The notes under the pieces are model-generated. The model made no database searches. It saw only the letters and a program-made list of their open reading frames with translations, and had not been told where the DNA came from. From NCBI GenBank assembly GCA_003104935.1, contig PQAE01000006.1, positions 1,037-65,036 on the forward strand: a DNA stretch of 64,000 nucleotides, in the 5' to 3' direction. Positions 12,257 through 59,646 of this stretch are shown here, in pieces; positions within the stretch are counted from its first letter, which is position 1, and each line of letters starts with the position of its first letter. Source of the stretch: Parcubacteria group bacterium (GTDB lineage: Bacteria > Patescibacteriota > Patescibacteriia > UBA1558 > GWA2-36-10). A program made the translations under genes and the position numbers.

Positions 12257-14017
12257 TTAAATCCGGCGACGCCGGACTCCGCCAACGGCGGAATATTTGA
12301 CGGGGTAAACTTCCTTTGATTTTTTCATATAATGCGTATGGCAAACACTCTTGGCATTTTTCTCGTCATCCAGAAAATTTTTATAAACATCCTGCACTAT
12401 CGGGCTGTCCTCGGCCACCCGGATTTTATTTTTAGTATCGATAGAGTACAGACCGGCGGCCCGCTTTTTTCTGATCTCGTCATCGACCGGCACCGGCTGG
12501 CCGCCGCCACCGATGCAGCCGCCAAAGCAAGCCATCACTTCCACATAATCATAAGCCCCGGGATTTTTCTTTAGTTCCGCGATAATAACCTTGGCATTGG
12601 CAATGCCGTTAGCCACCGCCACCTTAACAATTTTATCCTTCACTTTAATATCGGCTTTTTTCAGGCCTTGGATGCCCCGTACTTGTTCAAACTCTATCTT
12701 CGGCAATTTCCGACCGGTGATCATCTTATAGGCCGTACGCAAAGCCGATTCCATCACTCCGCCCGAGGCGCCGTAAATCACGCCGGCTCCGGTGGGCTGG
12801 GCAAATATCGGATCCGGTTTGGATTCGGGCATAGTTTTCAAATCAATGCCCTTTTTTCTAAAGATATGGGCCGCTTCCCGTACCGTATAGACATGGTCAA
12901 CGGCTCTTAGACCACTAATCTTCATCTCCGCCCTTTGTACCTCATATTTTTTAGCCACACAGGGCATGATGGACACCACTATTATATCCTTGGGATTGAG
13001 CTTCATTTTTTTGGCCCAGTAGGTCTTGATCAGCCCGGCCATGATCATCTGCGGCGATCGGGTGCTGGTCAGATAAGGGATGAGCTCGGGATGAAAAAAC
13101 TCTACATACTTGACCCAACCTGGACAGCAAGAAGTAAACAACGGCAAATTTTTCTTATTTTTAATTCGTTCAATCAACTCTTTAGCTTCTTCAATGGTGG
13201 TGACGTCCGCTCCCACGCTGGTATCAAAAACATATTTAACTCCTAATTTTTTTAAAGCGCTGATCAGACGCCCGGTAGCTACAGTGCCGTAGGGCAAGCC
13301 GAATTCCTCGCCGATAGTCGTACGCACCGAAGGCGCAAACTGCCAGACTACGGTCTTATCCGGCCGTTCAAATACTAGGTCTGAGTCCTCAAATTCTCCC
13401 ACGCCCTCAAAGGCGCCGACCGGACAATGGGTCAGACATTGACCGCAATAAATACAATCATGACAGGGATCGGCTGAGGGCATGACTTCAAAAAACTTGC
13501 CGTGTTTTTTATATTCCAGAAAATCCACGCCGACCTTATGACAGGCTTCTACGCAGAGTCCGCAGTCCACGCACTTTGAGCTGTCAAACTCCAGAGCCGG
13601 TCCAAAACGATGCACCGGATAACCGGCTTTGCGGTCGGGAAACTTATTAATGTTAATTTTCCAATCTTTGGCATAATGCCTGATTTTACAATTCTGCAAA
13701 TAAATACAGTCGCGGCATTCTTCGCAATGCTCGGTAAATATTAATTCTAAATTTACGGCCCGCGCTCTCCTGGCATCGGATGCCTCGCTATTTACTTCCA
13801 ATCCTTCCTGCACCGACAAAGTGCAGGCCGACTGCAGGCCCGGTTTGCCTTTGATTTTGACCTGGCAAAGACGGCAGGAACCCTGGATTTTTAAGTCCGG
13901 GTGAAAACAAAGATGGGGGATCTCCTGGCCATTGGCCAGAGCCACTTCTAAAACATTTTGCCCAGGATCAGCCAAACAGGTTTTACCGTTGATAATGATT
14001 TTTATCTTTTTAGACAT
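12257..14017 (-). CDS. hydA: [FeFe]-hydrogenase catalytic subunit
   Basis: H-cluster motifs L1 FTSCCPGW, L2 IMPCVAKKYE, L3 EVMACFGGCIGGGGQP; N-terminal 2Fe-2S and two 4Fe-4S Cys clusters. Start trimmed to MSKKIKII (ATG rc of 14015-14017) to avoid a 76-nt overlap with the upstream gene. Confidence 0.85.
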   Translation of the reverse strand: MSKKIKIIINGKTCLADPGQNVLEVALANGQEIPHLCFHPDLKIQGSCRLCQVKIKGKPGLQSACTLSVQEGLEVNSEASDARRARAVNLELIFTEHCEECRDCIYLQNCKIRHYAKDWKININKFPDRKAGYPVHRFGPALEFDSSKCVDCGLCVEACHKVGVDFLEYKKHGKFFEVMPSADPCHDCIYCGQCLTHCPVGAFEGVGEFEDSDLVFERPDKTVVWQFAPSVRTTIGEEFGLPYGTVATGRLISALKKLGVKYVFDTSVGADVTTIEEAKELIERIKNKKNLPLFTSCCPGWVKYVEFFHPELIPYLTSTRSPQMIMAGLIKTYWAKKMKLNPKDIIVVSIMPCVAKKYEVQRAEMKISGLRAVDHVYTVREAAHIFRKKGIDLKTMPESKPDPIFAQPTGAGVIYGASGGVMESALRTAYKMITGRKLPKIEFEQVRGIQGLKKADIKVKDKIVKVAVANGIANAKVIIAELKKNPGAYDYVEVMACFGGCIGGGGQPVPVDDEIRKKRAAGLYSIDTKNKIRVAEDSPIVQDVYKNFLDDEKNAKSVCHTHYMKKSKEVYPVKYSAVGGVRRRRI

Positions 14018-14040
14018 ATTATTTTTCGCCCACAGGACAA

Positions 14041-15033
14041 TCACCCTCTGGGTGATATTTTTATTTTGGCCAACAAACTGCGGAAGGGGACGACCACGGA
14101 TTTTCCTAAAGCACAAAAACTTGTGTTTTCCAAAACAAACATTAAATCCTCTATTTTTTTAGCGTCCAGCTTTTTATTTTCCAGCATCTTTTCCAGGCGA
14201 TAAGTGCCTTCGCGGCAGGGCGTACACTTGTCGCAATTTTCCCGCATAAAAAAAGTAACCCAAAACTTCATCAGCTGATACAAATCTGTTTTGGCTCTGT
14301 CAAAAATTACGATCGCTCCGGAACCACCCACTTTTTTCTTGGTCTCGCTAGGCAGTAATATTTCGCCGCTGGCTCCCCCGCCGATTTGCAAAAAATAATC
14401 TGTTTTCGGCAGATTGCCGGTGTGTTGTAAAATCCTCTGGATGGACCAGGAGTCCGGCAGTTCATACACGCCTGGTTTTTTGACGTCGCCGGAAATAGTA
14501 TAAAATCTGCTGTGTTGATATTTATTTTTAGCGATCTGACTGACAAAATAAAATGTTTCAATGTTATTAATCAATGTCGGGCAACCGAAAATGCCGGCTT
14601 GTCCCGGATAAGGCGGCTTAATTCGCGGTCGCGCCAGGTGATGCTCTATTTCCTGACATAACACTGTTTCCTCGCCGGAAAGATAGCCGCCTTTTTCACG
14701 AAATAATTTGATCGGAGCGCGGCCGATGAGCTTCTCCAGCTTAGCTTTATATTTCCGATAATAATCTTTGCGCAAAAAAATAATGGCCGTGGCATGGTCA
14801 ATATACTGCAGAGCGATTTTAATACCGCTAATCAGCTCCGCCGGATAGTGAGCTAAAATATAGCCGTCCTTCAAAACATTGGGCTCTCCCTCGGAGCCGT
14901 TTGCCACAATATACTTTTTTTCCGCCAACTGATTTTTTACTGCCTGCCATTTTACAGCTGTCGGAAAAGCCGCTCCGCCACGTCCGCTGAGCTGAGCTGA
15001 TTCTAATTTGGCGATGATGTCCCCCTTAGCCAT
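14041..15033 (-). CDS. NuoF-like NAD(P)H-binding flavoprotein subunit (hydrogenase partner, HydB/HndC-like)
   Basis: 330 aa; GGYLSGEETVLCQEIEH (FMN/NADH-binding region), CDKCTPCREG 4Fe-4S motif; immediately upstream of hydA. Confidence 0.7.
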   Translation of the reverse strand: MAKGDIIAKLESAQLSGRGGAAFPTAVKWQAVKNQLAEKKYIVANGSEGEPNVLKDGYILAHYPAELISGIKIALQYIDHATAIIFLRKDYYRKYKAKLEKLIGRAPIKLFREKGGYLSGEETVLCQEIEHHLARPRIKPPYPGQAGIFGCPTLINNIETFYFVSQIAKNKYQHSRFYTISGDVKKPGVYELPDSWSIQRILQHTGNLPKTDYFLQIGGGASGEILLPSETKKKVGGSGAIVIFDRAKTDLYQLMKFWVTFFMRENCDKCTPCREGTYRLEKMLENKKLDAKKIEDLMFVLENTSFCALGKSVVVPFRSLLAKIKISPRG

Positions 15034-15074: not shown

Positions 15075-15110
15075 AAAAACACAGGCTTGGGTTAAACCTG
15101 TGTTTTGAAA
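15075..15110 (-). terminator. intrinsic terminator after the anti-sigma-like gene
   Basis: Hairpin ACACAGG-N10-CCTGTGT followed on the minus strand by UUUUUUGUUU. Confidence 0.45.
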
Positions 15111-15127: not shown

Positions 15128-16171
15128 TTAATCTTTGTGACCTGGCTCCCGCCCCTTTCTTTCGTCCTGATCATCATCTCGTCCTTGAGTGCTTGTCGCA
15201 GTGCTGGTGGCAACTCTGTGTTCATTATCATCATTATCAATACCGCTCCCGGTAGTAGTGGCCCGACGCTTGTCTTCCTGTTCCTTTTTTTTCTGATCTT
15301 CCGGACAGCGCCCGATAGTATCATCGTGTGACAAATGAGCCGCCAAAGCGGACTGAGCGATTATCAAATCATGCGATATGTTGGAGCCAGTTTTGTGGCA
15401 GACCATTAGCTTTTTTTCCAATATCCAACCCGGCGTGGTAGTAGCCGTAGATGTCGCGGTACTAGTCGCGGTAGAAGTCGCCGTGTTGATGATAAATTTC
15501 CAACCCTGACCTTCAAAATGAACTTTAATGGCGCCGTTATCTTCTTCCTCGGCTTCAATGTCAAATTGCTGGTTCTTATCTTTATTCTTAAATTTCGCCT
15601 GCCATTGCTCGGCACTATCCGAATCGGACAATTTATCTTCGATTGTTTTGACAATTCGCTCCACTTGGCTGTCCGCCCGACGATCACCGCTAGCCGCTAC
15701 CTGGCTTCGCAAATTAGCTACTAGATTCAGGGCGGTTTCTATGTTCTGGTCATTACTCTTCTCCTGTTCTAGTTTCAAATTTCCGGAATTTTTTTGTTTA
15801 TTAGCGTTATCAATAATAACTCTTAACTCCCCTGCTCTTTCCTCGGCAAATTTGACGCGTAATTCATTTTTCTTTTGCGGCACGCTCAATGCCAGCTGGA
15901 CTTTCTCCACAGCCTGATCTAAGGGAAATAAGACGTCGCCGGGTTTGGCATAATCCGCCGCCCGGACTGTAGCCACTGACCCGCCCAGTAACAAAACGAT
16001 AATTAAAGATACTATGCCCATATGTTTATAATTTAATGACAAATAAAAAGACCAGTGACTCGGCGATTGTTGTCTCCGAGATAAGATATTTAACCATAAC
16101 TTCGCGCTTTCCCCAACGCTCAAGTCTCTGGGTCTAATCTGCTCTAATTTTTTTTCTAAATTATTTGTCAT
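15128..16171 (-). CDS. membrane-anchored anti-sigma-factor-like protein with TATS tandem repeats
   Basis: 347 aa; start overlaps the sigma-factor stop by 11 nt (translational coupling); single TM (IVSLIIVLLLGGSVATV); charged coiled-coil-like region; TATSTATSTATSTATT low-complexity tract. Confidence 0.45.
   Translation of the reverse strand: MTNNLEKKLEQIRPRDLSVGESAKLWLNILSRRQQSPSHWSFYLSLNYKHMGIVSLIIVLLLGGSVATVRAADYAKPGDVLFPLDQAVEKVQLALSVPQKKNELRVKFAEERAGELRVIIDNANKQKNSGNLKLEQEKSNDQNIETALNLVANLRSQVAASGDRRADSQVERIVKTIEDKLSDSDSAEQWQAKFKNKDKNQQFDIEAEEEDNGAIKVHFEGQGWKFIINTATSTATSTATSTATTTPGWILEKKLMVCHKTGSNISHDLIIAQSALAAHLSHDDTIGRCPEDQKKKEQEDKRRATTTGSGIDNDDNEHRVATSTATSTQGRDDDQDERKGREPGHKD
15435..15490 (-). 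repeat. 12-nt tandem repeat encoding (TATS)n
   Basis: GGTAGTAGCCGTAGATGTCGCGGTACTAGTCGCGGTAGAAGTCGCC on the + strand = 4 to 5 units of a 12-nt period. Confidence 0.5.
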
Positions 16172-16694
16172 GTTTTTTTAATAATTCTTCCATTTTTTTC
16201 AAAGCCCGATAGTGCCTAATTTTCACATTATTTTCCGTAATTTCCAGAACAGCGGCGATCTCTTTGAGAGTCAGTTGCGACCAATACCTGAGTTCTATTA
16301 CCAGACGGTACTTTTCGTCTAATAAATTCAGCACCTTCCGAATCTGACCAAAATCCTCCGGTATAAATTCATAGCTATCACGGATATTTCCGTCCTGCCA
16401 CTGAGCCGCAGGCTTTTCCTGATAATGCCGGCTGAGTTTGCGACGGGCAATTCGGTAAACAAAGCCATAAAACTGAGCGTCGCTGTGGTAATTAAACCTA
16501 CCGCTGGCACGCCACAAATCAATGAATAACTCCTGTAAAATATCTTGGGCATCCTCCCTAGTCTTACTACGGGACAGTAAAAAACGAAATAAGGGCTGAT
16601 GCAAAATCTGATAAAAGCCGTAAAAAGCCTCCTCATTTCCCTGCCGGCTCGCGGCCAGCAAATCTTTAATATTGGGATTACTTGGTGTTTGCAC
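16161..16694 (-). CDS. RNA polymerase sigma-70 family ECF sigma factor
   Basis: 177 aa; region 2 (ILQELFIDLWRASGRF...YGFVYRIARRKL) and region 4 HTH (LTLKEIAAVLEITENNVKIRHYRALKKM). Confidence 0.8.
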   Translation of the reverse strand: MQTPSNPNIKDLLAASRQGNEEAFYGFYQILHQPLFRFLLSRSKTREDAQDILQELFIDLWRASGRFNYHSDAQFYGFVYRIARRKLSRHYQEKPAAQWQDGNIRDSYEFIPEDFGQIRKVLNLLDEKYRLVIELRYWSQLTLKEIAAVLEITENNVKIRHYRALKKMEELLKKHDK

Positions 16695-16743
16695 TTTTTA
16701 GGTCTTCTTAGATGCCATTATCTTAGCAAAAAGTTACAAAATC

Positions 16744-16766
16744 AGCCAAAGGCGGCCCTTTGGCTG
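16744..16766 (-). terminator. hairpin terminator between the pilin-like genes and the sigma factor
   Basis: AGCCAAAGGGCCGCCTTTGGCT on the minus strand followed by GAUUUUGUAACUUUUU. Confidence 0.4.
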
Positions 16767-16782
16767 TACAAAAAATTTCAAT

Positions 16783-17166
16783 CTATTGACGAGTGGCGTT
16801 ATATAGTTCGCCCAGCACGAAACTGGCGATAGCATAGGCCGACAAAACTATGGCAATACCCACTATACCAGCGCCCATAGTTTTTTTTGCTTCATCTATT
16901 TTCTCCGATGATCCCATAGAAAGCATCCATCTGAATCCGCCTAGTAAGAAAAGGAGGACAGCAATTACCCCTAAAAAGCCCAATAGAACATTGATAATTC
17001 CTGCGATAGCGGTTCGTAAATCTTTATTACCCAGCCGCACACCCTGTTGGATCAGATCATTGACTCCATAATAAGCGTCGGCATTATCGGCTAAAGTAAC
17101 TTGAGGGGCTACCAGCGCCGGCGTGAGCAATAGGGACAGAACAAATATTTTTTTTAGCAAAGCCAT
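16783..17166 (-). CDS. TrbC/VirB2-like pilin-family small membrane protein, paralog 1
   Basis: Signal peptide (MALLKKIFVLSLLLTPALVAPQVTLA|DNAD), soluble segment, then two hydrophobic helices separated by a short polar loop, the VirB2/TrbC topology; about 70% identical to paralog 2. Start trimmed to M15 of the track ORF. Confidence 0.5.
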   Translation of the reverse strand: MALLKKIFVLSLLLTPALVAPQVTLADNADAYYGVNDLIQQGVRLGNKDLRTAIAGIINVLLGFLGVIAVLLFLLGGFRWMLSMGSSEKIDEAKKTMGAGIVGIAIVLSAYAIASFVLGELYNATRQ

Positions 17167-17264
17167 AAACTTAACAGTTTTAATATTTAACGGCACAAAC
17201 AAATCCATTTAAAATACCACCGCTAGAAAAATTGTCAAGCTGAACTCCTAAGCGTTCCCAAAAA

Positions 17265-17636
17265 CTATCTCGTACCATTATACAACTCACCCAGCACAAA
17301 ACTGGAAATGGCATAAGCCGACAAGACTATGGCCAAACCAATCACGCCCGCAATAATTGCGGCACGGCCGGAACTATTTTTATCGGCCTGGCCCTGCGAA
17401 GTCATAATCTGAAATCCACCGTAAATAACTGCCACCACGGCGATCACGCCTAAAAAACCCAAAATAACATTGATAATACCGGCGATGGTAGTGCGTAGAT
17501 CTTTACTTCCCAGACGCACGCCTTGCTGGACTAAATCGTTAATACCATAATAAATATCAGCGTTATCCGCAAAAGTTACACGCGGCGCAAACAAAGCCGG
17601 GATTATTAACAGTGCAAGGATAAATAATCTATTCAT
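17265..17636 (-). CDS. TrbC/VirB2-like pilin-family small membrane protein, paralog 2
   Basis: 123 aa; MNRLFILALLIIPALFAPRVTFA|DNADIYYGINDLVQQGVRLGSKDLRTTIAGIINVILGFLGVIAVVAVIYGGF..IIAGVIGLAIVLSAYAISSFVLGE. Confidence 0.5.
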   Translation of the reverse strand: MNRLFILALLIIPALFAPRVTFADNADIYYGINDLVQQGVRLGSKDLRTTIAGIINVILGFLGVIAVVAVIYGGFQIMTSQGQADKNSSGRAAIIAGVIGLAIVLSAYAISSFVLGELYNGTR

Positions 17637-17704
17637 AAATAATTATTAATTAATTATTAGATTACATATATTATAGCAAATATTGTTAAAATTAATAACC
17701 CTCC

Positions 17705-17733
17705 TTGACAATAATCAAATAAAATGATATAGT
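17705..17733 (+). promoter_or_regulatory. promoter TTGACA-N14-TGa-TATAGT
   Basis: 17-nt spacer, extended -10; RBS GGGAGG 6 nt before the TTG start at 17770. Confidence 0.45.
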
Positions 17734-17769
17734 ATGGAAGTTTTTTAGTACCCTGTCCGGGAGGTAACC

Positions 17770-17979
17770 TTGTCCAGAGATATTGGCTTGGCCATAGACA
17801 AATTTGTGATTTGTCTGCTGACCGACGAACCCTCAAATGAGGCGCTGACTCAAGTCTGGCAGGATCTGGAAGAGCACGGCTTTGATCCCCACGCCTGGTA
17901 CGACCAGGCAAACTGCATTTCCATGCAACAGTGGTACGATGCCGTGGAATCGGAGATGGTCCTGCGCGGACTGTTCTAG
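17770..17979 (+). CDS. small acidic hypothetical protein, GC-rich cassette gene
   Basis: 69 aa, TTG start with strong SD; GC-rich ORF; followed by hairpin terminator; contains the QVWQD pentapeptide shared with the 6264..6794 product. Confidence 0.4.
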   Translation: MSRDIGLAIDKFVICLLTDEPSNEALTQVWQDLEEHGFDPHAWYDQANCISMQQWYDAVESEMVLRGLF

Positions 17980-17996
17980 AGCTACGGCTCGAAGCA

Positions 17997-18040
17997 AAGA
18001 GGCACCTAGAGCTTATTTAAGCCGGGTGCCTCTTCTAATT
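17997..18040 (+). terminator. intrinsic terminator (AGAGGCACC-N17-GGGTGCCTCT + TCT)
   Basis: 10-bp stem directly after the 17770..17979 stop. Confidence 0.5.
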
Positions 18041-18168
18041 GACAAAATAATCTTTTAGCGCTAAAAATACTCCGATTGTTGTCCGGCCAACAACAATGGA
18101 GCGGATGTGTTGGCAAACGGCCTGAAGCTCTTGCCAATGACGCTGAAGGTGTGTCACTTTTTCGCCGA

Positions 18169-18218
18169 AATGAACATACCCCCAGCTAATCGCTGGGGGT
18201 ATGTTCATTATTTTTCCT
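18169..18218. terminator. strong hairpin (AATGAACATACCCCC-N11-GGGGGTATGTTCATT) flanked by T-runs
   Basis: 15-bp perfect stem immediately downstream of the stop of the 18228..22073 giant gene; TATTTTTCC on the + side. Confidence 0.45.
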
Positions 18219-18227
18219 TACAGAAAT

Positions 18228-21200
18228 TTATTTAGCTTTAGCTCTTCTCCTAAATATAAAACCTAGTAAAATACCCATGCCGAAAGCCGCCGCAATCAAA
18301 AACCATTTTCTATCCCAAGCCGATGATGTTTTTAGTTCCACATCTTGGCTGACAAAATCTCCCTTACTGACATCAAAAATCTGCGACTTAAATTCATGAT
18401 AACCAGAAGCTTTGACGGTGAAATAATATTTACCTTCCGGCACCAGGAAATTATATTCACCGGTCTTGTCCGTATGTTGCGGATTAGTCTGATCAAAATC
18501 CTTGCCCGGCCATACTTTAAAATCATCTTGGCTCTGTGGTTTATAATACATCGTCACCTCGGCATCCGGTACCCTTAGCTCTTTGCCGTTGTATTTTTCA
18601 TAAACATAACCTCGTGGATCGATAAGTAGCTGAGTATTGCTGTCGTCCGTAGAGCCGTCTTGATAGTTAATCACGGTTTCCAAAATATATTCGCCGGCGA
18701 TCCAGGGCATATCAATATCGGCTTCATAGATGCCGTCACCATTGGTGTCTGTCAGTGTATATTCGCTGATCAGCCAGGTCTCGTCCGCCTGTGCCACTGG
18801 TACAAAATGCTGGATAATTTCCTTTTCTAAACTAACCTTGGCTGCTTTTTTGAAGATGACTCTGACCTTGATAGAAGTCACGGGTTTGTCCGGCTTGACC
18901 TCCTTTTTTAATTTGCTACCGGCTATCAGAGTAACCGTCTGGTCGCCTATACCTCGACTTAAGATAATCTGACCGGCTGTAGATTCGATAAAAGACTGTC
19001 CCGGTTGCAGGATATTTTCCGGCAGATTAGCCGACGGTGTTACTGGCGGTGTTGTTGGGACTTCCGGAGTCGGCAAAGTTACGACCGGTGCGGGCTGGGG
19101 TTGCGGAGCTGTAGTCGGTGGTCTCACTATCGGAGCCGGAATGGCCGGCAGTGGTGGTTTAGGAATAGTTACCGGCGGCTTGGTAATCACTACCGGCGGT
19201 TTTGGTTTTGATGCTACTGGAGTGACCGGTTTCGGAGGCACGGGAGGCGGCGGAGCCACAATCGGTGGAGTCACTACTGGCGCGGCCACCTGGGTATTTA
19301 AAATTATGCTGTCAAAAACTAGCTCCGAAGCCAAACCCCCGCTGGAATAATATTTCACATATACCGTATAGGTGCCATCCGGACAGGTATCACGCCGCAC
19401 CAGGCCGATATAACTGGAACAAAGATCCCATTGCTTGCTGGCAGTATAATCTTCTTGCCCGGCATCATTGAAGGTGCCGTCCATAGAAATAGCCATTCTG
19501 ACGGTGTTAGCGCCGGCGGTCAGATTTAAACTGACCAAGCGGTCAACAGCTTGAGTTGTTCCGTTATTAATAACTACTCCAAAATTTCCGCCCGGATTAC
19601 CTGACGATGGCGTGGGTGGTGCCGGCGGCACCGGCGGCAAACCGCCGCCGCCCCCGGGACAATTTGTTGTCGAAACGGTAGTGTTAACGGTTGCGGTTTC
19701 AATGCCATCGGCGTTTCTATATTTCACCGCATAAGTATAGCTATTGCCACAGGATAAAGAAGTATCGGTCCAGGAATTAGTATTTATCCAACCGGAATTA
19801 TGATTGCCGCCGGCAAAATAGTATCCCGAAGAGCCGACGCTATTGTTGGTCAAAGCATCAACGCTCAAAGCTACGCTATTGGTACTGCCAGTACCGCTAA
19901 AATTAGTCGGCGTATCGGCTAAAGTATATTTGCTGGCTACGGTGCCGTAAGTACTGGTGTTATTTGTCAGATCGCTAAACTGGACATCATAAGTATATTG
20001 GGTGTTATCGGTAAGACCTTGGTTAGTAATTGAAGATGTGGTGGTAGCGTTTGAGCCAAGGGCAGTAACGCTATCTCTCCGAGCCTGCCATTGATTTAAG
20101 ATGCCGCCCTCGGTTACTACGGTCGGCTTATTGACGACGATGGAGTTTGAGGTCACCGTGCCGAAAGTGGGCGCACCTACGGCTGAAGGCGCGACATTAT
20201 CCACGCCAAAAGCATTTGAGGTCGTCCAGGCGCTGGCATTGGCTGAGCCGTCGTTTGGTCGGACTCTGATATAAACACTGGCGTCTTCTGTGGTAGGCAG
20301 ATCAGTAGCGCTATCCCAGACAAAAGTATGACTAGTGCCGGGACTGGCCGAGGAACTAAGACCGGTCAATCCTTCTCCACCGCCGCTGGTAGCATCAGAC
20401 CAACTGGAATTATCTGTAGAATACTCAAGACCGGAAGAGCCGGTCTGCGAAATGTTTAAAGTATCGGCATCGGCGTCAATCAATTTATAATTTACCGTAA
20501 CATTGGCGCTGTCCCACTCGGCAAAATCATTGGTCAGCGTTGCGCTGGGAATATTATTATAGCCCACGGCGATATTATCCAGCTGGACTAACTGTGTTCC
20601 GTCCGAATGCAAAAAAGCCTTGAACAAAAAACTGCCGCTACCGGTGGAAAAAGTTCCGACGTTGGTATTGACAGTATCGGCCGTGCTGGCCTGAGCATAA
20701 GTGCCGTCCGAAGCGGTCCAACCGCTATTATAATAATACCAGGTAGAGCCCCCGTCATTGCTAATGACATATTTTATTTCTCCCCCGTTTTTAGTGGCTG
20801 TTTCGGTAAAACCAGACAAAGTACTAAAGGTCAAGACTGTAGCCGGTTGTATAGTGGGATCGTCATTAGGATATCTGGTCTGTTCGCTGCCGGCAGAAAT
20901 GCTTTCATCCAATACTTTCCAGACTTTGTAGTCGTCCCAAGAAGGCTGAGAATTCCAAGCATGCACTCCCGGATACAAAGTGGTAATACAATTTCCAGAA
21001 TTAATGCCGGTCAGATCAGCTCTGGTAGTGCCGTCTATCCAGGCCGTAACTCGAGTATTGGTAGGACAAGTAGTGCCATAAGTAACGCGCATCGTGCTAC
21101 GATAATCAACTCCGGTGGTAATCGTGAAAGTCCCGTAATTAACCGGCGTATTACCGTCAGCCAGCTTGGCGCCTAAACGCCAAATTTCCAAATCATTGGC

Positions 21201-22073
21201 CGAAGATCCATAAGTAGTAGTTCGTAAGCCATAACCAGTAGTTTCCGGAACAGAAGTAACCCAAGCGTGTCCGACAGTATTAGTGGTGACTGCTCTCTGC
21301 GACGTTACTTCTGAATACCACCCGCCTGTGGCTCCAAAGGCAAAACCGTTGCTAGTGTCTCCGGAAAATTTATCCGTAGCTTCGGTGGTTAGTTTTTTTA
21401 AACGCCCGGATCCGTCCGGATTCACCTCCCACTGAGTCAAGCCGGCATTAGCCCAAGTACTAGTTGTAGTGAAATCATTATAATAGGAATAAACATTGGT
21501 TAAAACCTGCGGACTAGATGTTGCCGCCCCACTATAACCGTAATACAAATAATAATTAGTGTCCGTACCCGAAGTAGAAACATTTGCCTGAGCTTTAAAA
21601 CGCACATCGCTGTTGACTGGTGCATTACTGGGCGTAGCGGCGATCGCTCCCAGACCGCTGGCCAAATAATCCATGTCAATATTGGTATTATCTGATCCAC
21701 TCCAATAAACTATACGCAAATCTGCGTGATCGGCGCGCATCTTTGAATCGCTGACCAAGGTGGCGATGTCTGCGTTTAAGGTCAGTGTATTCCCAGTAGC
21801 AACAGCGGTAGTGGAGCTGGCGGTGACCGTCAGTTGTTTGCGGTAAAGATAATTAGTGTCCCACCAGGGCGTGGAACGGCCGAGCTGGGCCTGGCCGCCA
21901 CTAAACTCAATCTTAGTGTTATCATAAGTATAGTCTCCGGCAGTGCCAAAATTATAAGTGCCGGAAGCGGCATCCACAGCGCCGGGTTGGTAATAAATAA
22001 AAAAAGAAGCCACAAGACAAAAAACAGTAAATATTACTATAGTTCTGCTTATTCTCCTATGGTTTATAAACAT
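18228..22073 (-). CDS. giant secreted/cell-surface protein (1281 aa) with Pro-rich stalk, CnaB/carboxypeptidase-regulatory-like domain and C-terminal TM anchor
   Basis: N-terminal signal peptide; long Thr/Ser/Gly/Asn-rich beta-rich region; Pro-rich linker (PPVPPAPPTPSS...PPPPVPPKPVTPVASKPKPPVV...); C-terminal GEYNFLVPEGKYYFTVKASGYHEF beta-sandwich motif; terminal FLIAAAFGMGILLGFIFRRRAKAK anchor. Confidence 0.7.
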   Translation of the reverse strand: MFINHRRISRTIVIFTVFCLVASFFIYYQPGAVDAASGTYNFGTAGDYTYDNTKIEFSGGQAQLGRSTPWWDTNYLYRKQLTVTASSTTAVATGNTLTLNADIATLVSDSKMRADHADLRIVYWSGSDNTNIDMDYLASGLGAIAATPSNAPVNSDVRFKAQANVSTSGTDTNYYLYYGYSGAATSSPQVLTNVYSYYNDFTTTSTWANAGLTQWEVNPDGSGRLKKLTTEATDKFSGDTSNGFAFGATGGWYSEVTSQRAVTTNTVGHAWVTSVPETTGYGLRTTTYGSSANDLEIWRLGAKLADGNTPVNYGTFTITTGVDYRSTMRVTYGTTCPTNTRVTAWIDGTTRADLTGINSGNCITTLYPGVHAWNSQPSWDDYKVWKVLDESISAGSEQTRYPNDDPTIQPATVLTFSTLSGFTETATKNGGEIKYVISNDGGSTWYYYNSGWTASDGTYAQASTADTVNTNVGTFSTGSGSFLFKAFLHSDGTQLVQLDNIAVGYNNIPSATLTNDFAEWDSANVTVNYKLIDADADTLNISQTGSSGLEYSTDNSSWSDATSGGGEGLTGLSSSASPGTSHTFVWDSATDLPTTEDASVYIRVRPNDGSANASAWTTSNAFGVDNVAPSAVGAPTFGTVTSNSIVVNKPTVVTEGGILNQWQARRDSVTALGSNATTTSSITNQGLTDNTQYTYDVQFSDLTNNTSTYGTVASKYTLADTPTNFSGTGSTNSVALSVDALTNNSVGSSGYYFAGGNHNSGWINTNSWTDTSLSCGNSYTYAVKYRNADGIETATVNTTVSTTNCPGGGGGLPPVPPAPPTPSSGNPGGNFGVVINNGTTQAVDRLVSLNLTAGANTVRMAISMDGTFNDAGQEDYTASKQWDLCSSYIGLVRRDTCPDGTYTVYVKYYSSGGLASELVFDSIILNTQVAAPVVTPPIVAPPPPVPPKPVTPVASKPKPPVVITKPPVTIPKPPLPAIPAPIVRPPTTAPQPQPAPVVTLPTPEVPTTPPVTPSANLPENILQPGQSFIESTAGQIILSRGIGDQTVTLIAGSKLKKEVKPDKPVTSIKVRVIFKKAAKVSLEKEIIQHFVPVAQADETWLISEYTLTDTNGDGIYEADIDMPWIAGEYILETVINYQDGSTDDSNTQLLIDPRGYVYEKYNGKELRVPDAEVTMYYKPQSQDDFKVWPGKDFDQTNPQHTDKTGEYNFLVPEGKYYFTVKASGYHEFKSQIFDVSKGDFVSQDVELKTSSAWDRKWFLIAAAFGMGILLGFIFRRRAKAK

Positions 22074-22166
22074 AAAACTTGAATAGATTGACGCATTTAT
22101 TCAGGAGTAATTATAACATATTTCGGCCTTAATGATAATAGTACTCAGAGATTTGCCACTTGAGTC

Positions 22167-45773: not shown

Positions 45774-48700
45774 TTAAAATCCCAGTAGTTCTAACAGCCA
45801 ATTTTTCTTCGGTGCTGGTATGTTTTGACAAAGTCCCGTGGCGCTGATGCACTGCTGTCCGCTGGGACAACCGCAAAGACTACAGTTGTTGGAAAGGTTA
45901 CCGCTGGCATCGCAATATCTTGGTTTGACGCTACTGCAGGAATTAAGATTAGTGCGATCGCCGCATTGATTTACGACTTGATATACTTCCAAACCGTTCA
46001 GACCCCAAGAACAAGTGCCCGATGGCGTACAAATGCCGTCCATAGTAAAACGCAAATTCAGATAGCCGTCACTGACCATCACCGGCATCTGGTCCGAGCT
46101 GATGATGGGATAAGGAGCGGTGCCGGCGGTACTCTGCGCCGCTACCGTGCCAATCAGAACTCCACTCTCCTCTACTTTCATGGGCTGAGCAAAATTATTT
46201 GGATACTCGGTGTCTCCCCGATGCACGACAACCATATAGTTTCCATTGGCGGGAACTTTAATCTTAAAGGTCGGAGAATTTCTAGGATCGGTAGCGGACA
46301 AAGAGCTACCACGATTCATATAATCCTTGGTCATGACATCGCCCAAAGCACGCGTGCGACCACTGACACCATACATACTGGGCAAATCAAAACCATAACC
46401 TTGAACCTCACTATAAATGGAGTTGACGCTGTGTATTAGATTAGTCCAATCCCCACTACTCTGATTAGCGGCATCACTATTCATATTAAAATCAAATTTT
46501 TGTAACCAGCCAATGCCGCCGGGTGTTTGGGCGGTGGTGGTGAAGGAATTGTCAGCGGACCAAGCTATGTTTCCGCCGGCGTCAGCCGAACGGACCCGAT
46601 AATGATAAAAAGATGAGGCCGTCAAACCGCTGATGCTCTGGCTATGATTTAATACTAAAGACGGATCCAAGACAGTATTCTGGCCATAGCTGACGGTCAG
46701 GCCGTATTCTATTTGCGAGTTGGCCGCTTCGTTGGTATCCCAGATAATATCGGCACTATTTGTGGTTAAATTACTGGTCAGAACATTGGATATGACCGGG
46801 GCTATAATATCGATAGGTGCAGTGGCGGTAGTAAAAGTATAATCACCGGAAACAGCTTCATTGTTACTGGCATCTTTGGATCTAACCCGATAATGATAAG
46901 TGGTGTTGGCCTGTAAAGCAGACAAAGTTTGGCTATGGTTCAGTACAAAATTAGTGTCTAAAGTGGTGCTGAAGCCATAGCTGGCAGTCAAGCCGTATTC
47001 TATTATTGACGTGGCTGGTTCGTTGGTAGTCCAGCTGATAACAGCACTCTGCTGGCTGATAGATCCAGCCGAAACACCACTGATCTGCGGCGGGATAATA
47101 TCCCCGGCTCCCGGAGTAATAGTGAACGAAATCAAAGTATCGGCACTATTGATATTTCCAGCTACATCCTTACAACGCACATAATAACTATAAGTACCGG
47201 GGCTAAAACTAGCTACTGAGCGCGAACGGTGAATGTTTTTTCCGGTGATGGGCAAATAGTAAGGCATCAGCGGGTAGCTTTGTCCGGCACTTAAGCTATA
47301 TTTGCAAGTGGCGGCTTCATTGGTACTAAGGCCAAAACGCGTACTCGTGCCCGCCACTACCGAAGCCGCAGGAACAATACTGGAGATCTGCGGCGGCGTA
47401 GTATCAATTACAGCGGCGCCAGCATTGATGCTATATCGGATCAAAAAATTATTATCACCCGATGGGACTGTTACATTTGCCGTTTGATTACTGCCTCCCG
47501 GCAAAGGAGCGGGTTCGCCGCTCAGATCGTTGGCTGCCCAATAGACTTGATTACTGCTGGGCGGATATAAGTACAAATCATTATTATCTACTCTTTGCTC
47601 ATCAAAATATAAATTTTCTACCAAAGGTTTAGCGGCCGACTTTATCATATAGGACTCTGTGTTGGCCGGGGCGGTCCACTGCAATTGCCAGTTATTGCCT
47701 CCCAGACTCTGCTTCTGCGGAGTGATAAAACCGCCGCCTAATTTATTACGGTTAAGCCAAGTCCAGATAAAATCCTGTGCCGCGATGTCCGATCCTCTCT
47801 CATAGGGTTCATACTGCATCATCCGGCAAAACATACCCTGGCCAACTTCCAGAAAAATGGCGTTACCGGTTTGTTGATATGCCCAGCCATAGGCGGCCGG
47901 CAGATAGTCGGCGCGTTTAAATTCTTCCGTAACCGACGGAGAACTGGAGGTCACGGGATTGGGATATTGATAGGAGATACGGTAGGGAGTGCGCCAACCG
48001 TCAAAAGAGCCATTGCCGGGCACGCGACTATACTTAGTGATTTCCGTAGGCTCAAACTCGGTTTGCCCCAGGAGAAAATCAGACAATTCTTCTACGCGTC
48101 CCGGATCGGCGGCATCAGTACCGAGATCGCGCAAGACTCGGGCAGCCTCCCAAGTGCCAAAAGGCACAAAATATTGATGATAAAAACTATTGCCGCGGCC
48201 ATAAGGACAATCCATATGGCTCTGGGAATACAAAAATCCCCTGTCCATATTGCGGCCGTCATACTTAGTACCGTTACTACAGCCTCCGCCGTCGCGGCTA
48301 CTTATCAGTTGATCGGTCATAAACCTCAAATACTGCCATTCCCTGGGCAGGTTCAAATATTCGGCAAATAAGGCATGGTCACGATAAGAGTTAGGCCAGC
48401 CGCGCAGACCTCCAGATCCAAAACCATAAGTAGAAATTATTCTGTTGCGGGCGCCATATTCCCCATTTTCTCTAAGCGCTATATAATCTGCTATCTCCCG
48501 CGTGTCATTATAAAACTCATTTTCGCCGGTCAATAACCAGGCGACTAAGATTGACTGCCAGTGCGAATGATTACGATTAGATTCTAAGGTGTTGCCGCTG
48601 ATTCCCCCGCCGTTATACCCGCCAACATAATCACCCCAATTCCAAGCATTGGGATTGGAGTTTGGCCAAGTAGCGAGAAGATCGCAATCGTCACAACGCA

Positions 48701-50420
48701 CGGCCGCTTGGTCGGCTTTAAAACGGCTATCATGATAAGCCCGTAAAAACAAACCGCCCTTGCCGGTACGTAAATAATCGAGAAAATATGAAACAGATTT
48801 ATCCAATTGATTATTACCACCAGTCTTGCCCCAACTTCTGGCTCGCCAGACCACGTCCTTGTTTTCATTCGCTAGCAAGGAATCACGCAAAGGCCGACAG
48901 GTTACGGACTGGCCAAAAGCACTGTCGGTAGCGCTGATAAATTGACTAAACTCGGTTTCATCCACCAAATGCTTTGCCCCTAAGATTGAACCGGCTTCGT
49001 AATAATGATAATCTGTCGCCCGGCCAAATAAGGGATTGGCTAAAGCCAAAAAAGCACTGTTGTCCGAGGCTACCGGAACAGTATTATGAAAATCAATCAT
49101 TATTTGCCGGCTATCCCTGGCGCCCCAGGTAAAATAAATCGGCTGATAACTATTGTGCGGGGAAAATATCTGCAAATCCAGGTTGCCGTCTGGGCTAAAC
49201 TCAAAACCCCCTCCCCAAAACTCCGAAAGATGATTTTGGGCAATAGTGATAGCTCTGTTTTGACCAGTACTTTCGGACAAACGGGCCCAACCGAGAGACC
49301 ACTCTAAATCGCTCCCTAAACTATGAGAAACACTGGGGCCATTTTTTATTTCCATACCGGTCTGAGTCCCGACTGTAGGAGCGATAACATCCCCATAATC
49401 ACCGTCTATTTTATTTTTACTATAGGCCTGAAACAAATAAGCCGTGCCGGTACTGAGCGCTCCGCTAAAATTGCCGACATTGGTGGGAAATAAAAATTGC
49501 GGCGCGCCAGTCAGATTGGTCGGCAGACGCAGACCAAGGCTACGAAAGGCCTTTTTGCTAAGATCGGAACTGTTGGCATTGCGTAGCGCCAGGTCCATCT
49601 TAATTTGAGCGGAATTGCGGAAAAAATGCAGACGCAGAGTATAATACAAATTATGATTTAATCTATCAACAGAGGTCAGAGTACCTATGGCTTTGACTAT
49701 GGTATGCGCCGGACCGTCTTGTTCTACAGTCACCTGCGGAGCCGGATCGTAAATAGAAGAAAAAGTAGTACCATTATTGTCCAGGAGCCACAAACCGCCG
49801 CTATGCCCGGCGGTGATAAAAGACTGACCGTTGACTATGGCGCTGTCTATAACATTGAAATTGCTTTTTTTGATATCAAACTGAGCCACGCCGGTATTGA
49901 CAGCTATTTTACCGGCCGAAACCATAGCCATAGTATTGTTGGCCGGATTACCGTCATTATCAAAATTGCCACTTCCGTTGGTTAAGGCTATGTTTGTGAA
50001 GCTACCAGCCGCTACTGTAGCCTCAGTATCAACCGTTACCCATTGTAGATTTCCAGACTTGGGCCAACGGCGAGTTTCCTTAAACTGGCCTACGGTCACC
50101 CCGCTTAACCCCAGCTGACTGACATTAGTCACGGCATATTCATCTTTTAAGGGAATGCCAAAGGTAACAATCTGATTATTCCTATTAGTCCCAGTTACGC
50201 CCGAGGGCAATAGCTCTTCGACCGTAACCGGAACACTAAAAGACTGCACGGCGACCTTCTGCGGAATGGACAATAGCTTTAAAGTCTTATAGTTATTAAC
50301 TACTAATCCAGCTAAAATCAGGGCGGAAGAAACAAAAAGTAAGGCCAAAAAAATCCTTACTCTGATAGACAAAATAGTTTTAGTTGCGGAAGAATTCCTG
50401 GCCTTACGTTTCATAGACAA
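45774..50420 (-). CDS. giant extracellular protein (1548 aa) with three or more fibronectin-type-III repeats, a central polysaccharide-lyase/hydrolase-like region and a C-terminal Cys-rich module
   Basis: N-terminal TM/signal; three ~100-aa FN3-like repeats (PPQISxV...W.TNE.A.S.IEYG.T..YG....LD...VLNHSQ.LS.L.A...YHYRVRS.D..GN); C-terminal CGDRTNLNSCSSVKPRYCDASGNLSNNCSLCGCPSGQQC. Confidence 0.7.
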   Translation of the reverse strand: MSMKRKARNSSATKTILSIRVRIFLALLFVSSALILAGLVVNNYKTLKLLSIPQKVAVQSFSVPVTVEELLPSGVTGTNRNNQIVTFGIPLKDEYAVTNVSQLGLSGVTVGQFKETRRWPKSGNLQWVTVDTEATVAAGSFTNIALTNGSGNFDNDGNPANNTMAMVSAGKIAVNTGVAQFDIKKSNFNVIDSAIVNGQSFITAGHSGGLWLLDNNGTTFSSIYDPAPQVTVEQDGPAHTIVKAIGTLTSVDRLNHNLYYTLRLHFFRNSAQIKMDLALRNANSSDLSKKAFRSLGLRLPTNLTGAPQFLFPTNVGNFSGALSTGTAYLFQAYSKNKIDGDYGDVIAPTVGTQTGMEIKNGPSVSHSLGSDLEWSLGWARLSESTGQNRAITIAQNHLSEFWGGGFEFSPDGNLDLQIFSPHNSYQPIYFTWGARDSRQIMIDFHNTVPVASDNSAFLALANPLFGRATDYHYYEAGSILGAKHLVDETEFSQFISATDSAFGQSVTCRPLRDSLLANENKDVVWRARSWGKTGGNNQLDKSVSYFLDYLRTGKGGLFLRAYHDSRFKADQAAVRCDDCDLLATWPNSNPNAWNWGDYVGGYNGGGISGNTLESNRNHSHWQSILVAWLLTGENEFYNDTREIADYIALRENGEYGARNRIISTYGFGSGGLRGWPNSYRDHALFAEYLNLPREWQYLRFMTDQLISSRDGGGCSNGTKYDGRNMDRGFLYSQSHMDCPYGRGNSFYHQYFVPFGTWEAARVLRDLGTDAADPGRVEELSDFLLGQTEFEPTEITKYSRVPGNGSFDGWRTPYRISYQYPNPVTSSSPSVTEEFKRADYLPAAYGWAYQQTGNAIFLEVGQGMFCRMMQYEPYERGSDIAAQDFIWTWLNRNKLGGGFITPQKQSLGGNNWQLQWTAPANTESYMIKSAAKPLVENLYFDEQRVDNNDLYLYPPSSNQVYWAANDLSGEPAPLPGGSNQTANVTVPSGDNNFLIRYSINAGAAVIDTTPPQISSIVPAASVVAGTSTRFGLSTNEAATCKYSLSAGQSYPLMPYYLPITGKNIHRSRSVASFSPGTYSYYVRCKDVAGNINSADTLISFTITPGAGDIIPPQISGVSAGSISQQSAVISWTTNEPATSIIEYGLTASYGFSTTLDTNFVLNHSQTLSALQANTTYHYRVRSKDASNNEAVSGDYTFTTATAPIDIIAPVISNVLTSNLTTNSADIIWDTNEAANSQIEYGLTVSYGQNTVLDPSLVLNHSQSISGLTASSFYHYRVRSADAGGNIAWSADNSFTTTAQTPGGIGWLQKFDFNMNSDAANQSSGDWTNLIHSVNSIYSEVQGYGFDLPSMYGVSGRTRALGDVMTKDYMNRGSSLSATDPRNSPTFKIKVPANGNYMVVVHRGDTEYPNNFAQPMKVEESGVLIGTVAAQSTAGTAPYPIISSDQMPVMVSDGYLNLRFTMDGICTPSGTCSWGLNGLEVYQVVNQCGDRTNLNSCSSVKPRYCDASGNLSNNCSLCGCPSGQQCISATGLCQNIPAPKKNWLLELLGF

Positions 50421-58068: not shown

Positions 58069-59646
58069 TCAAATTAAGGGCCTGCCGGTCATCTCCGGCG
58101 GTTTTTTTAAACCCATAATTTTTAAAATGGTTGGCGCGATATCGGCTAACACTCCCACCGGCGTGACATGACTCAAATCAGTTCCCATTGTCCCCACCAG
58201 AACACTTTTGCCGGCATAATCCTGCCCGATGACAAAGAGGGGCACGGAGCTGTTTGAATGTTCCTTATCTATTTCGCCGGTCTGAATATTGTACATATTT
58301 TCGGCGTTGCCGTGGTCAGAGGTAACCAAAACTAAACCGTCATAAGACAGAGCTGTATCGACGATGTCACCTACAAGGGAATCTAACAATTCCACCGCTT
58401 CCACCGTCGCTTCGATATTGCCGGTATGTCCGACCATATCCGCATTGGCATAATTGATCACGATAAAATCATAAGTACCCTCCTTGATAGCCTCGGTGAC
58501 GCGAGCCGTGATTTCCCGGGCGGACATGGCCGGTTTTTGGTCATAAGAGATGACCTGGGGCGAAGGAATAAGTGCCCGGTCCTCTCCCGGATATATCTTT
58601 TCCTGACCGCCGTTGAAAAAATAAGTGACGTGAGCGTATTTTTCCGTCTCGGCGATATGAAACTGCTTTAAGCCAGCTTCCGATATTACCCGAGCTAAAG
58701 GAAACTCCACATGCAAAGGCGGAAAGGCCACTTCCACTGGCAGGTCTTTTTCATATTCAGCCATAGTGACCAGCAATAAATCCTTAAAATAGGCGCGCGG
58801 GAATTTTTCAAAACCTGGTAAAACCAGGGCCTTACTCATCTGTCGCGCCCGGTCGGCACGAAAATTGAAAAATATAACCGCATCTTGGTCGCAGATAGTG
58901 GCTCGCGGCTCACCGGCGGCATTGGTAATCACTACCGGTTCAAATTCTTCATCGTAAACTTTTTTGGCGTAGGAATCCTGAATCGCTTGGAGCGGATCAG
59001 TAAACTTGTGCGACGCCTGCCCGTCCACTATGGCCCGAAAAGATTTTTCGGTCCGATCCCAACGGTTGTCCCGGTCCATGCCCCAAAAGCGTCCAGCCAC
59101 AGTCGCGATCTTGCCCACGCCCAAGGCCCTGATTTTTTCCTCCAGCTTATCCACAAAATTTAGTCCGCTATTAAAGGGCGTATCGCGTCCGTCCAAAAAG
59201 ACATGGATAAAAACATTTTTAATTTTTTGCTGCTGGGCCAACTCCAGCAAAGCATAAAGATGCTCATTATAACTATGCACTCCGCCGGAAGAAACCAGAC
59301 CCATCAAATGCAAAGTGCTTTTATTTTTTTTAACATGATCACAGGCCTTCAAAAATGCGGGATTAGTAAAAAAATATCCGTCCGTAATCGCTTTGGTGAT
59401 ACGCGTCATATTTTGATAAGCCACTAAACCGGAGCCGATCGACAGGTGTCCTACCTGGGAATTACCCATTTCCCCCCAGGTCAATCCCACCGCTTCTCCC
59501 GAAGCCGCCAGAGGCATGATCGGATAGTTGGAAGCATACTTATCAAAATTAGGAGTTTTAGCCAAAGAAATAGCATTGGCCCGCGAAGGAGGAGCAATAC
59601 CAAATCCGTCTAAAATTATCAGCACTACCGGCTTAGGTCTAGTCAT
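58069..59646 (-). CDS. gpmI: 2,3-bisphosphoglycerate-independent phosphoglycerate mutase (iPGM), copy 1
   Basis: 525 aa; LIILDGFGIAPPS, SGGVHSY (catalytic Ser region), HVFLDGRDT, TSDHGNAE. Confidence 0.85.
   Translation of the reverse strand: MTRPKPVVLIILDGFGIAPPSRANAISLAKTPNFDKYASNYPIMPLAASGEAVGLTWGEMGNSQVGHLSIGSGLVAYQNMTRITKAITDGYFFTNPAFLKACDHVKKNKSTLHLMGLVSSGGVHSYNEHLYALLELAQQQKIKNVFIHVFLDGRDTPFNSGLNFVDKLEEKIRALGVGKIATVAGRFWGMDRDNRWDRTEKSFRAIVDGQASHKFTDPLQAIQDSYAKKVYDEEFEPVVITNAAGEPRATICDQDAVIFFNFRADRARQMSKALVLPGFEKFPRAYFKDLLLVTMAEYEKDLPVEVAFPPLHVEFPLARVISEAGLKQFHIAETEKYAHVTYFFNGGQEKIYPGEDRALIPSPQVISYDQKPAMSAREITARVTEAIKEGTYDFIVINYANADMVGHTGNIEATVEAVELLDSLVGDIVDTALSYDGLVLVTSDHGNAENMYNIQTGEIDKEHSNSSVPLFVIGQDYAGKSVLVGTMGTDLSHVTPVGVLADIAPTILKIMGLKKPPEMTGRPLI

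Follow-up and report, generated by a model that had tools for sequence, protein, structure and literature searches.

Does a set of neighbouring genes for a sigma factor, pilins and a surface protein constitute one regulated module, or do these genes merely stand side by side? The question is raised by a locus in a metagenome-assembled genome of the Parcubacteria group (Patescibacteria, or candidate phyla radiation (CPR)), located in a 64-kb stretch of DNA which, at its full length, we refer to as the window. The locus contains a gene for a giant cell-surface protein, two genes for small VirB2/TrbC-like pilins, a gene for an extracytoplasmic function (ECF) sigma factor, and a gene for a membrane protein of the DUF5667 family (locus tags C3F02_02260, C3F02_02270 and C3F02_02280). 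A preliminary description had proposed that these genes form a single ECF-controlled filament and adhesin module. Here we report that the individual gene assignments in that description are largely right, and that the unifying module interpretation is not supported. It appears probable that the region comprises three functionally separate units, and that their adjacency is synteny inherited within one narrow clade rather than a regulatory module.

The five minus-strand open reading frames (ORFs) previously listed for the locus were all found at the same coordinates. In the direction of transcription, the locus begins with the giant gene (18228-22073, 1281 aa), followed by the genes for pilin 1 (17265-17636, 123 aa, PF18895, locus tag C3F02_02270), which is the more divergent copy, and pilin 2 (16783-17166, 127 aa, PF18895). 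The mechanical ORF of pilin 2 spans 16783-17208 (141 aa), and the start used here was set by an independent gene call and by homolog alignment. Next come the gene for the ECF (group 4) sigma-70 family sigma factor (16161-16694, 177 aa) and the gene for the single-pass DUF5667 membrane protein, a probable anti-sigma factor (15128-16171, 347 aa).

Predicted promoters and terminators of the locus

The region upstream of the sigma gene contains a putative autoregulatory ECF-type promoter, TGTAAC-N18-CAT (16704-16740, minus strand), which was recognized by comparing homologous loci. Metagenomes scanned with a query alignment built from four orthologs yielded 28 sigma/DUF5667 loci. Of 18 independent loci, 14 had GTAAC-N18-CAT at a distance of 30-55 nt upstream of the sigma start codon, and 17 had the GTAAC part. 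Such an element is what one would expect of an autoregulated ECF promoter. The position weight matrix gave 26.7 bits at 16704-16740 and at most 15 bits elsewhere in the window, where the best other site lies inside a coding region, and the exact sequence GTAAC-N18-CAT occurs once in the window, upstream of the sigma gene. None of the sigma loci, relatives or other loci examined had a second ECF-type site, and about 1.3 Mb of pilin loci contained no ECF-type site above 17 bits. Outside the window, the tGTAAC-N18-CAT element was seen in loci L087-L111.

The giant gene and the pilin genes have promoter-like sites of a different type. Upstream of the giant gene is a sigma-70-type site with the extended -10 element TGTTATAAT (22110-22138, minus strand), and the same element is present upstream of the L088 ortholog. 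Pilin 1 is preceded by the extended -10 element TGCTATAAT (17670-17678, minus strand), and in L087, L088 and L120 the identical element precedes the first of the pilin genes. Both elements fit TGnTATAAT. For pilin 2, a promoter scan detected TTGACA-16-TATTTT, preceded by TG (17211-17238, minus strand).

The genes are also separated by terminator-like structures. A gap of 591 nt between the giant gene and pilin 1 holds a conserved ORF of 69 aa on the opposite strand (17770-17979, plus strand), divergent from pilin 1 and convergent with the giant gene, and a strong hairpin with an 18-bp stem (18169-18209) that is terminator-like and lies just downstream of the giant gene, between it and the 69-aa ORF. 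The giant gene had been placed "immediately beyond" the pilin genes, which this gap contradicts, while the Pro-rich stalk, the C-terminal anchor and the surface character ascribed to its product were all upheld (see below). L088 and L090 have homologs of the 69-aa ORF, of 69 and 89 aa respectively, at the corresponding site, with the shared motif NPHAWY...CIT.EQW..LESE..FR; the ORF has a promoter of its own with an 11/12 sigma-70 match (17705-17733, plus strand), and no Pfam-type or PHROG family matched its product. A second hairpin, resembling an intrinsic terminator, is located between pilin 2 and the sigma gene (16743-16766, minus strand), and both this hairpin and its T-run are kept in L087, L088, L119 and L120. 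A third terminator-like hairpin (15076-15106, minus strand) ends the sigma/anti-sigma operon. Taken together, the predicted signals split the giant gene, the pilins and the sigma pair into separate transcription units.

Gene order in related lineages

To compare gene order beyond the window, we used the 28 sigma/DUF5667 loci and a set of 81 species-representative pilin loci of Patescibacteria (L003-L083), each taken with 10 kb on either side. When the sigma factor, the DUF5667 protein and the giant protein of the window were searched with phmmer against all ORFs of the 81 pilin loci, no match was found even at E<=5. Conversely, a pilin or giant-protein homolog was found in 0 of the 28 sigma/DUF5667 loci. 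A general linkage between pilins and the sigma factor was therefore rejected. Conservation of the sigma/anti-sigma-pilin arrangement had been named in the preliminary description as a check on the module, and it turned out to be confined to a narrow clade.

Within this clade the arrangement is variable. L088/L089 have the same gene order as the window. The giant gene is missing from L087 and L120, where one or two pilins are present, and L090, the sigma factor of which is 49% identical, has the giant gene, the small ORF, the sigma gene and the DUF5667 gene and no pilins. The pilin copy number within the clade is one or two, and the pilins and the giant gene have been lost independently. The flanking housekeeping proteins of the relatives that share the order are 80-87% identical, so that common descent would explain the shared gene order.

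The ECF sigma factor and its probable DUF5667 partner

The 177-aa protein matched Sigma70_r2, Sigma70_r4_2 and Sigma70_ECF above their cut-offs and contains only regions 2 and 4. Its score against TIGR02937 was 76.5 bits (cut-off 42.9), which confirms the original assignment as an ECF sigma factor. The 347-aa protein encoded next to it matched PF18915 (DUF5667) with 33.3 bits (cut-off 27). From the N-terminus, it consists of a cytoplasmic segment of about 45 aa, a transmembrane helix at about residues 48-74, the DUF5667 domain, an acidic segment, a (TATS)n linker with the run TATSTATSTATSTATTT, and a Cys/His motif. The stop codon of the sigma gene and the ATG of the DUF5667 gene overlap by 11 nt (ATGACAAATAA). 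Thus, the overlap and the single transmembrane helix agree with the earlier observation that the sigma stop overlaps the start of a single-pass protein with a TATS repeat.

The pairing of the two genes is widely conserved. An ECF sigma homolog is encoded directly upstream on the same strand in 22 of the 28 DUF5667 loci, and five of the other six are cut by a contig end within 212 nt, leaving 22 of 23 loci that could be evaluated. The DUF5667 family has 1,338 clusters at 50% identity, with a conserved core at residues 1-125. Because of the conserved pairing, the translational coupling and the topology, the DUF5667 protein is very probably the cognate anti-sigma factor, as the preliminary description had suspected. 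The zinc-binding HxxxCxxC motif of anti-sigma factors was not present in residues 1-45. A search for any other gene recurring next to the sigma/DUF5667 pair, which could be a target, returned none, and literature searches on DUF5667 and on ECF sigma factors in CPR/Parcubacteria returned nothing relevant. The pair is a member of a large and apparently undiscussed, but conventional, ECF family.

In Bacillus subtilis, SigX/RsiX and SigW/RsiW are co-transcribed pairs of an ECF sigma factor and a single-pass anti-sigma factor. The pair described here resembles them: its sigma factor is limited to regions 2 and 4, and an overlapping gene for a single-pass membrane protein follows. It differs in that the extracytoplasmic domain is DUF5667 and that the short N-terminus lacks the HxxxCxxC motif. 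As to the putative promoter, TGTAAC matches the SigX-type -35 element, with the 'AAC' of the -35 shared, whereas the predicted -10 element is CAT at an 18-nt spacing instead of CGT/CGAC.

Two further observations concern these proteins. The Cys/His motif, CHxxG..I....SA..AHLxHGD..G.C, occupies residues 258-289 of the DUF5667 protein (window positions 15305-15400, minus strand), after the Thr/Ser-rich linker. All four close homologs have it, as do 7 of the 22 more distant DUF5667 homologs, and it also occurs as 5-15 tandem stretches in the large proteins P0161, P0163 and P0182; the motif may be a small metal-binding extracellular repeat. In addition, L088 encodes a second, different ECF-like sigma factor (190 aa) with an overlapping 270-aa gene (L088:519-1881), about 8 kb upstream of its pilin-sigma locus and beside LemA/TPM genes.

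The two small proteins

Over 123 aa, pilin 1 and pilin 2 share 65% identity and 83% similarity. They are tandem paralogs upstream of the sigma gene, as had been described, although the identity is somewhat below the "roughly 70%" first estimated. Both exceeded the curated cut-off of PF18895 (T4SS_pilin), 26.6 bits, with scores of 28.2 bits for pilin 1 and 32.2 bits for pilin 2, and all 28 aligned relatives also matched this family. PF04956 (TrbC/VirB2) was matched by 21 of 28 family members (best E=1.4e-7). The two pilins themselves aligned with PF04956 over nearly its full length (profile positions 9-97 of 98), with E-values of 1.2e-3 for pilin 1 and 2.5e-4 for pilin 2, but their scores of 19.4 and 21.6 bits missed the gathering threshold of 27.9 bits. 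These scores support distant TrbC/VirB2 homology, and not curated membership. The best NCBIfam match of both was NF045849, the Mbov_0395 pilin-like family (E=1.8e-8 and 7.1e-6, positions 8-78 of 80), with 34 and 25.6 bits, under the curated cut-off of 40. Several relatives carry the NCBI name "pilin". The VirB2/TrbC-like assignment first made from the DNA is thus in keeping with the curated PF18895 matches and with the PF04956 matches of the relatives.

Both proteins begin with a hydrophobic signal segment that ends in an A-x-A-type site (TFA|D and TLA|D), followed by a polar stretch of about 20 aa and two long hydrophobic helices (Kyte-Doolittle segments 2-24, 47-80 and 88-119). In an AlphaFold2 model, the signal helix and a second, short helix precede a long helical hairpin whose two arms, residues 47-79 and 84-122, reach a pLDDT of 88 or higher. 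Hydropathy and model alike therefore reproduce the topology first proposed, a signal peptide with a soluble segment and two hydrophobic helices. Neither a profile of the pilin family searched against the PDB sequences (no match at E<=10) nor a PHROGs scan of the small proteins (no holin or other meaningful match) added a relative. The pilin reading thus stands at the level of sequence families, and pilus formation is inferred. Pilin 1 departs from its family in two respects: it has I at the otherwise near-invariant W77, and it lacks the EKxDEAKK loop motif.

VirB2 of Agrobacterium and TrbC of RP4, both PF04956 proteins, are similar to the window pilins in their small size, long signal peptide, two hydrophobic helices and short charged loop. 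The differences are that the host here is monoderm, that no virB operon adjoins the genes, and that no cyclisation or processing genes are evident. The Mbov_0395 family of the Mycoplasma integrative and conjugative element (ICE) is likewise found in a monoderm with an MPF-FATA-type context, whereas the window genes are not on an ICE.

Pilin arrays and the origin of the pair

A third pilin paralog of the same genome, C3F02_01910, is encoded on another contig, and its context was deduced from the orthologous arrays L003, L084 and L086. In relatives, the closest homologs of the window pilins are the third gene of a four-gene pilin array preceded by a gene for a solute-binding protein (SBP). In a neighbour-joining tree all sigma-adjacent pilins fell within this "third-gene" clade, where pilin 1 had the longest branch. 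From the tree position and the third paralog, the pilin pair is best read as dispersed, recently duplicated offshoots of an array pilin.

In the 81 pilin loci, all of this subfamily, the number of pilin ORFs ranges from 1 to 13, with a median of 6. SBP_bac_1 genes occur in 58 of the 81, in 52 cases on the same strand as the pilins and no more than 300 nt upstream of them; L003:5533-8913, L084:5469-8914 and L086:5533-8839 are examples of such SBP-pilin arrays. No VirB4-like ATPase was found within 10 kb on either side of the 81 pilin loci, and the large Walker-A proteins checked near them were all SMC, ComM-like, ABC-F, FtsH or FtsK. In the library that was searched, no paper tied solute-binding proteins to these arrays.

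The window also has no type IV secretion system (T4SS) machinery. Among about 55 of its ORFs scanned against Pfam or NCBIfam, there were no VirB4, type IV coupling protein (T4CP) or VirB6 families, which agrees with the preliminary description. The Patescibacteria VirB2-like pilins and pilin arrays are reportedly connected with the work of Wang et al. in Cell in 2023.

A survey of Patescibacteria found VirB2-like pilins (PF04956 and PF18895) in 1,948 assemblies, near virB4 in 1,135 of them, and 441 pilin arrays of 2-11 genes (Quinonero-Coronel et al. 2025; PMC12102498). VirB4 itself was found in 2,417 of 3,035 Patescibacteria assemblies (PMC12102498). Since only 1,135 of the 1,948 assemblies have the pilins near virB4, pilin genes remote from T4SS genes are normal in Patescibacteria, and window pilins with no neighbouring T4SS genes are not remarkable but already documented for this group. 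The window pilins share with the surveyed ones the Pfam family, the size, the layout of signal peptide and helical hairpin, the tandem paralogs and the chromosomal site, and about 40% of the reported cases, like those here, are not beside virB4. The window pair differs from the reported arrays in having just two genes, each with its own promoter, in its 65% identity, which is above the reported within-array maximum of 54% (PMC12102498) and points to a recent duplication, and in the neighbouring ECF sigma operon, a neighbour that is unmentioned in PMC12102498.

The giant surface protein

The 1281-aa protein has an N-terminal hydrophobic segment (residues 7-31), two Pro-rich regions (798-835 and 918-1025), and a C-terminal transmembrane helix (1256-1276) followed by RRRAKAK. 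No LPXTG motif precedes the C-terminal helix. No Pfam family exceeded its cut-off in the protein (PF13620 reached E=8e-6, below its curated cut-off), and there was no match among the PDB sequences. Its homologs are mosaic surface proteins of Patescibacteria that contain PF10102 (DUF2341), PF13385 (Laminin_G_3), PF00041 (fn3-like), PF16656, PF13620 (CarboxypepD_reg) and LysM; the orthologs in L088 and L090 are 60% and 50% identical, respectively. By comparison with these homologs, the predicted layout is a signal or anchor segment, a DUF2341/LamG-like N-terminal region, fn3-like beta-sandwiches, two Pro-rich spacers, a CarboxypepD_reg-like domain and the C-terminal transmembrane helix.

The most widely conserved module of the protein is an unannotated beta-sandwich of about 115 aa at residues ~393-510 (20544-20897, minus strand). 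It was present in 63 of 66 homologs with 45-72% identity, some of which have prepilin-type N-termini. AlphaFold2 predicted a small beta-sandwich for this module (pLDDT 90.6). Carbohydrate-binding modules were among the weak hits when it was compared with PDB folds, none of which matched significantly (best E=0.043). Dozens of the DUF2341/LamG/fn3 mosaic proteins of Patescibacteria have the N-terminal region, the 393-510 module and the fn3-like middle in common with the giant protein, which is distinguished from them by its own domain combination, long Pro-rich spacers, and a C-terminal transmembrane anchor with no LPXTG. The features predicted from the protein and its homologs provide good support for a membrane-anchored multidomain surface protein, and it would be reasonable to regard it as a putative adhesin.

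Other genes of the window

The window encodes a second giant surface protein of 1548 aa (45774-50420, minus strand), upstream of the mraZ/mraW cell-division cluster, with PcRGLX-like beta-sandwich, fn3 and Pur_ac_phosph_N domains. We rejected the idea that the 1281-aa protein is its paralog, as the two are 25% identical over an fn3-like stretch only. The remaining window genes are housekeeping genes for glycolysis, aminoacyl-tRNA synthetases, DnaB, RecR, mraZ/mraW/penicillin-binding protein (PBP)/Mur, an FeFe-hydrogenase and a P-type ATPase. NuoF-like and FeFe-hydrogenase genes (12257-15033, minus strand) follow the sigma/anti-sigma operon directly; they are also present in L088 and absent from the syntenic L087. 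The glycolysis cluster contains, with enolase and phosphoglycerate kinase (PGK), two tandem genes for cofactor-independent phosphoglycerate mutase (iPGM; 58069-59646 and 59649-61229, minus strand). A 713-aa protein (52100-54241, plus strand) has two central hydrophobic segments and no Pfam family; its similarity to the CIS12 contractile-injection-system NCBIfam is faint (E=2e-5, far under the cut-off).

Discussion

The results favour a model in which three units of the locus work separately. The surface protein would be exported by its N-terminal signal, held in the membrane by the C-terminal helix, and would display its beta-sandwich modules on the Pro-rich spacers, presumably for binding or adhesion. 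The pilins, two recent copies of the PF18895 family, would each be expressed from a housekeeping-type promoter, exported by Sec, cleaved after the A-x-A site and inserted into the membrane as a helical hairpin. They may then be extracted and polymerised by an MPF-FATA-like T4SS, which about 80% of Patescibacteria carry elsewhere on the chromosome. The short cytoplasmic N-terminus of the DUF5667 protein would tether the sigma factor to the membrane, and an extracytoplasmic signal would set the sigma factor free to drive its own GTAAC-N18-CAT promoter together with targets outside the window.

Several observations weigh against this model. The pilin-sigma adjacency is kept in all five lineages with a sigma factor at least 62% identical (the window, L087, L088/L089, L119 and L120), and the giant gene stays beside the sigma gene in L090, so that there may be some selective reason for the proximity. 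The activity of the ECF promoter is deduced from sequence comparison only. ECF sigma factors can recognise divergent target promoters, and a matrix built from autoregulatory sites would miss them. A Foldseek comparison of the AlphaFold2 pilin model with the PDB was uninformative, with no significant match to a solved pilin (best E=1.2). Finally, the usual neighbour of this pilin subfamily is an SBP gene and not a T4SS ATPase.

The last observation leads to the alternative that survives best, namely that the small proteins are VirB2-like by descent and act independently of a T4SS, for example as a membrane or surface scaffold linked to SBP-dependent uptake, with the window genes as spare copies. 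The frequency with which SBP_bac_1 genes stand close upstream of the pilin genes, the size of the arrays, the layout shared by the nearest paralog arrays, the lack of VirB4-like ATPases within 10 kb of the 81 loci and the absence of T4SS genes from the 64-kb window are all in line with such a role. On the other hand, the profiles link the family to TrbC/VirB2 (21 of 28 members), distance from virB4 is common even among pilins presumed to serve a T4SS, SBP adjacency may be mere operon packing of secreted proteins, and neither copy is tied to an SBP by any gene of the window. Southlakia epibionticum requires a pilin array, and other Patescibacteria have such arrays within their T4SS loci, where arrays and T4SS are both essential (PMC12857230). 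We consider this alternative unlikely. Since SBP genes and arrays are coupled with no VirB4 nearby, a T4SS-independent pilin role is possible. In its wider form, in which the SBP-coupled PF18895 subfamily builds a T4SS-independent surface or uptake structure and the two copies here sit beside, and are possibly loosely controlled by, a DUF5667-type ECF switch, the proposal is doubtful.

The module originally proposed, in which the sigma/DUF5667 pair would sense an envelope or host-contact signal and switch on the adjoining pilins and giant gene as one attachment module, fares worse. It can draw on the order pilin(s)-sigma-DUF5667 in the five related lineages, on the order giant-small ORF-sigma-DUF5667 in L090, and on the fact that all the products are envelope proteins, which are generally known as typical ECF targets. 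However, neither of the pilin genes nor the giant gene is preceded by GTAAC-N18-CAT (the best site other than that of the sigma gene itself reaches 15 bits, against 26.7, and falls in a coding region). Instead, conserved sigma-70-type TGnTATAAT promoters precede these genes, and a terminator-like hairpin stands between pilin 2 and the sigma gene. Furthermore, losses of the giant gene and of the pilins occurred independently in the clade, none of the 81 pilin loci and 28 sigma loci elsewhere shows the adjacency, and the relatives that share the order have diverged by only about 18-20% in their housekeeping proteins. Joint control as one module thus appears very unlikely, and the idea of an ECF-controlled filament and adhesin module was not borne out.

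The weakest alternative, that the small proteins are generic two-helix membrane proteins (e.g. holin-like) unrelated to pilins, is scarcely credible: it could appeal to the PDB fold search that found no significant pilin match and to the family profile that found no PDB sequence, but both proteins and all 28 relatives match PF18895, the layout, with a cleavable signal peptide ahead of a helical hairpin, is that of VirB2/TrbC and not of holins, no holin PHROG matched, and the surroundings are housekeeping chromosomal genes with no phage genes.

Regardless of how the pilins are used, we consider three separate units in inherited synteny to be the likeliest account of the locus. Its two VirB2-like pilin genes, its ECF sigma/anti-sigma pair and its mosaic surface protein are further members of families previously known from Patescibacteria, and the adjacency of these genes should not be read as a regulatory module. 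What remains novel is the conserved ECF promoter and the tight and widespread coupling of the pilin subfamily with SBP genes. The GTAAC-N18-CAT promoter could be used to predict the regulon of the DUF5667-linked ECF family in closed Patescibacteria genomes, and the coupling of SBP genes with pilin arrays away from T4SS ATPases bears on the role of the essential "pilins" in epibiotic ultrasmall bacteria.

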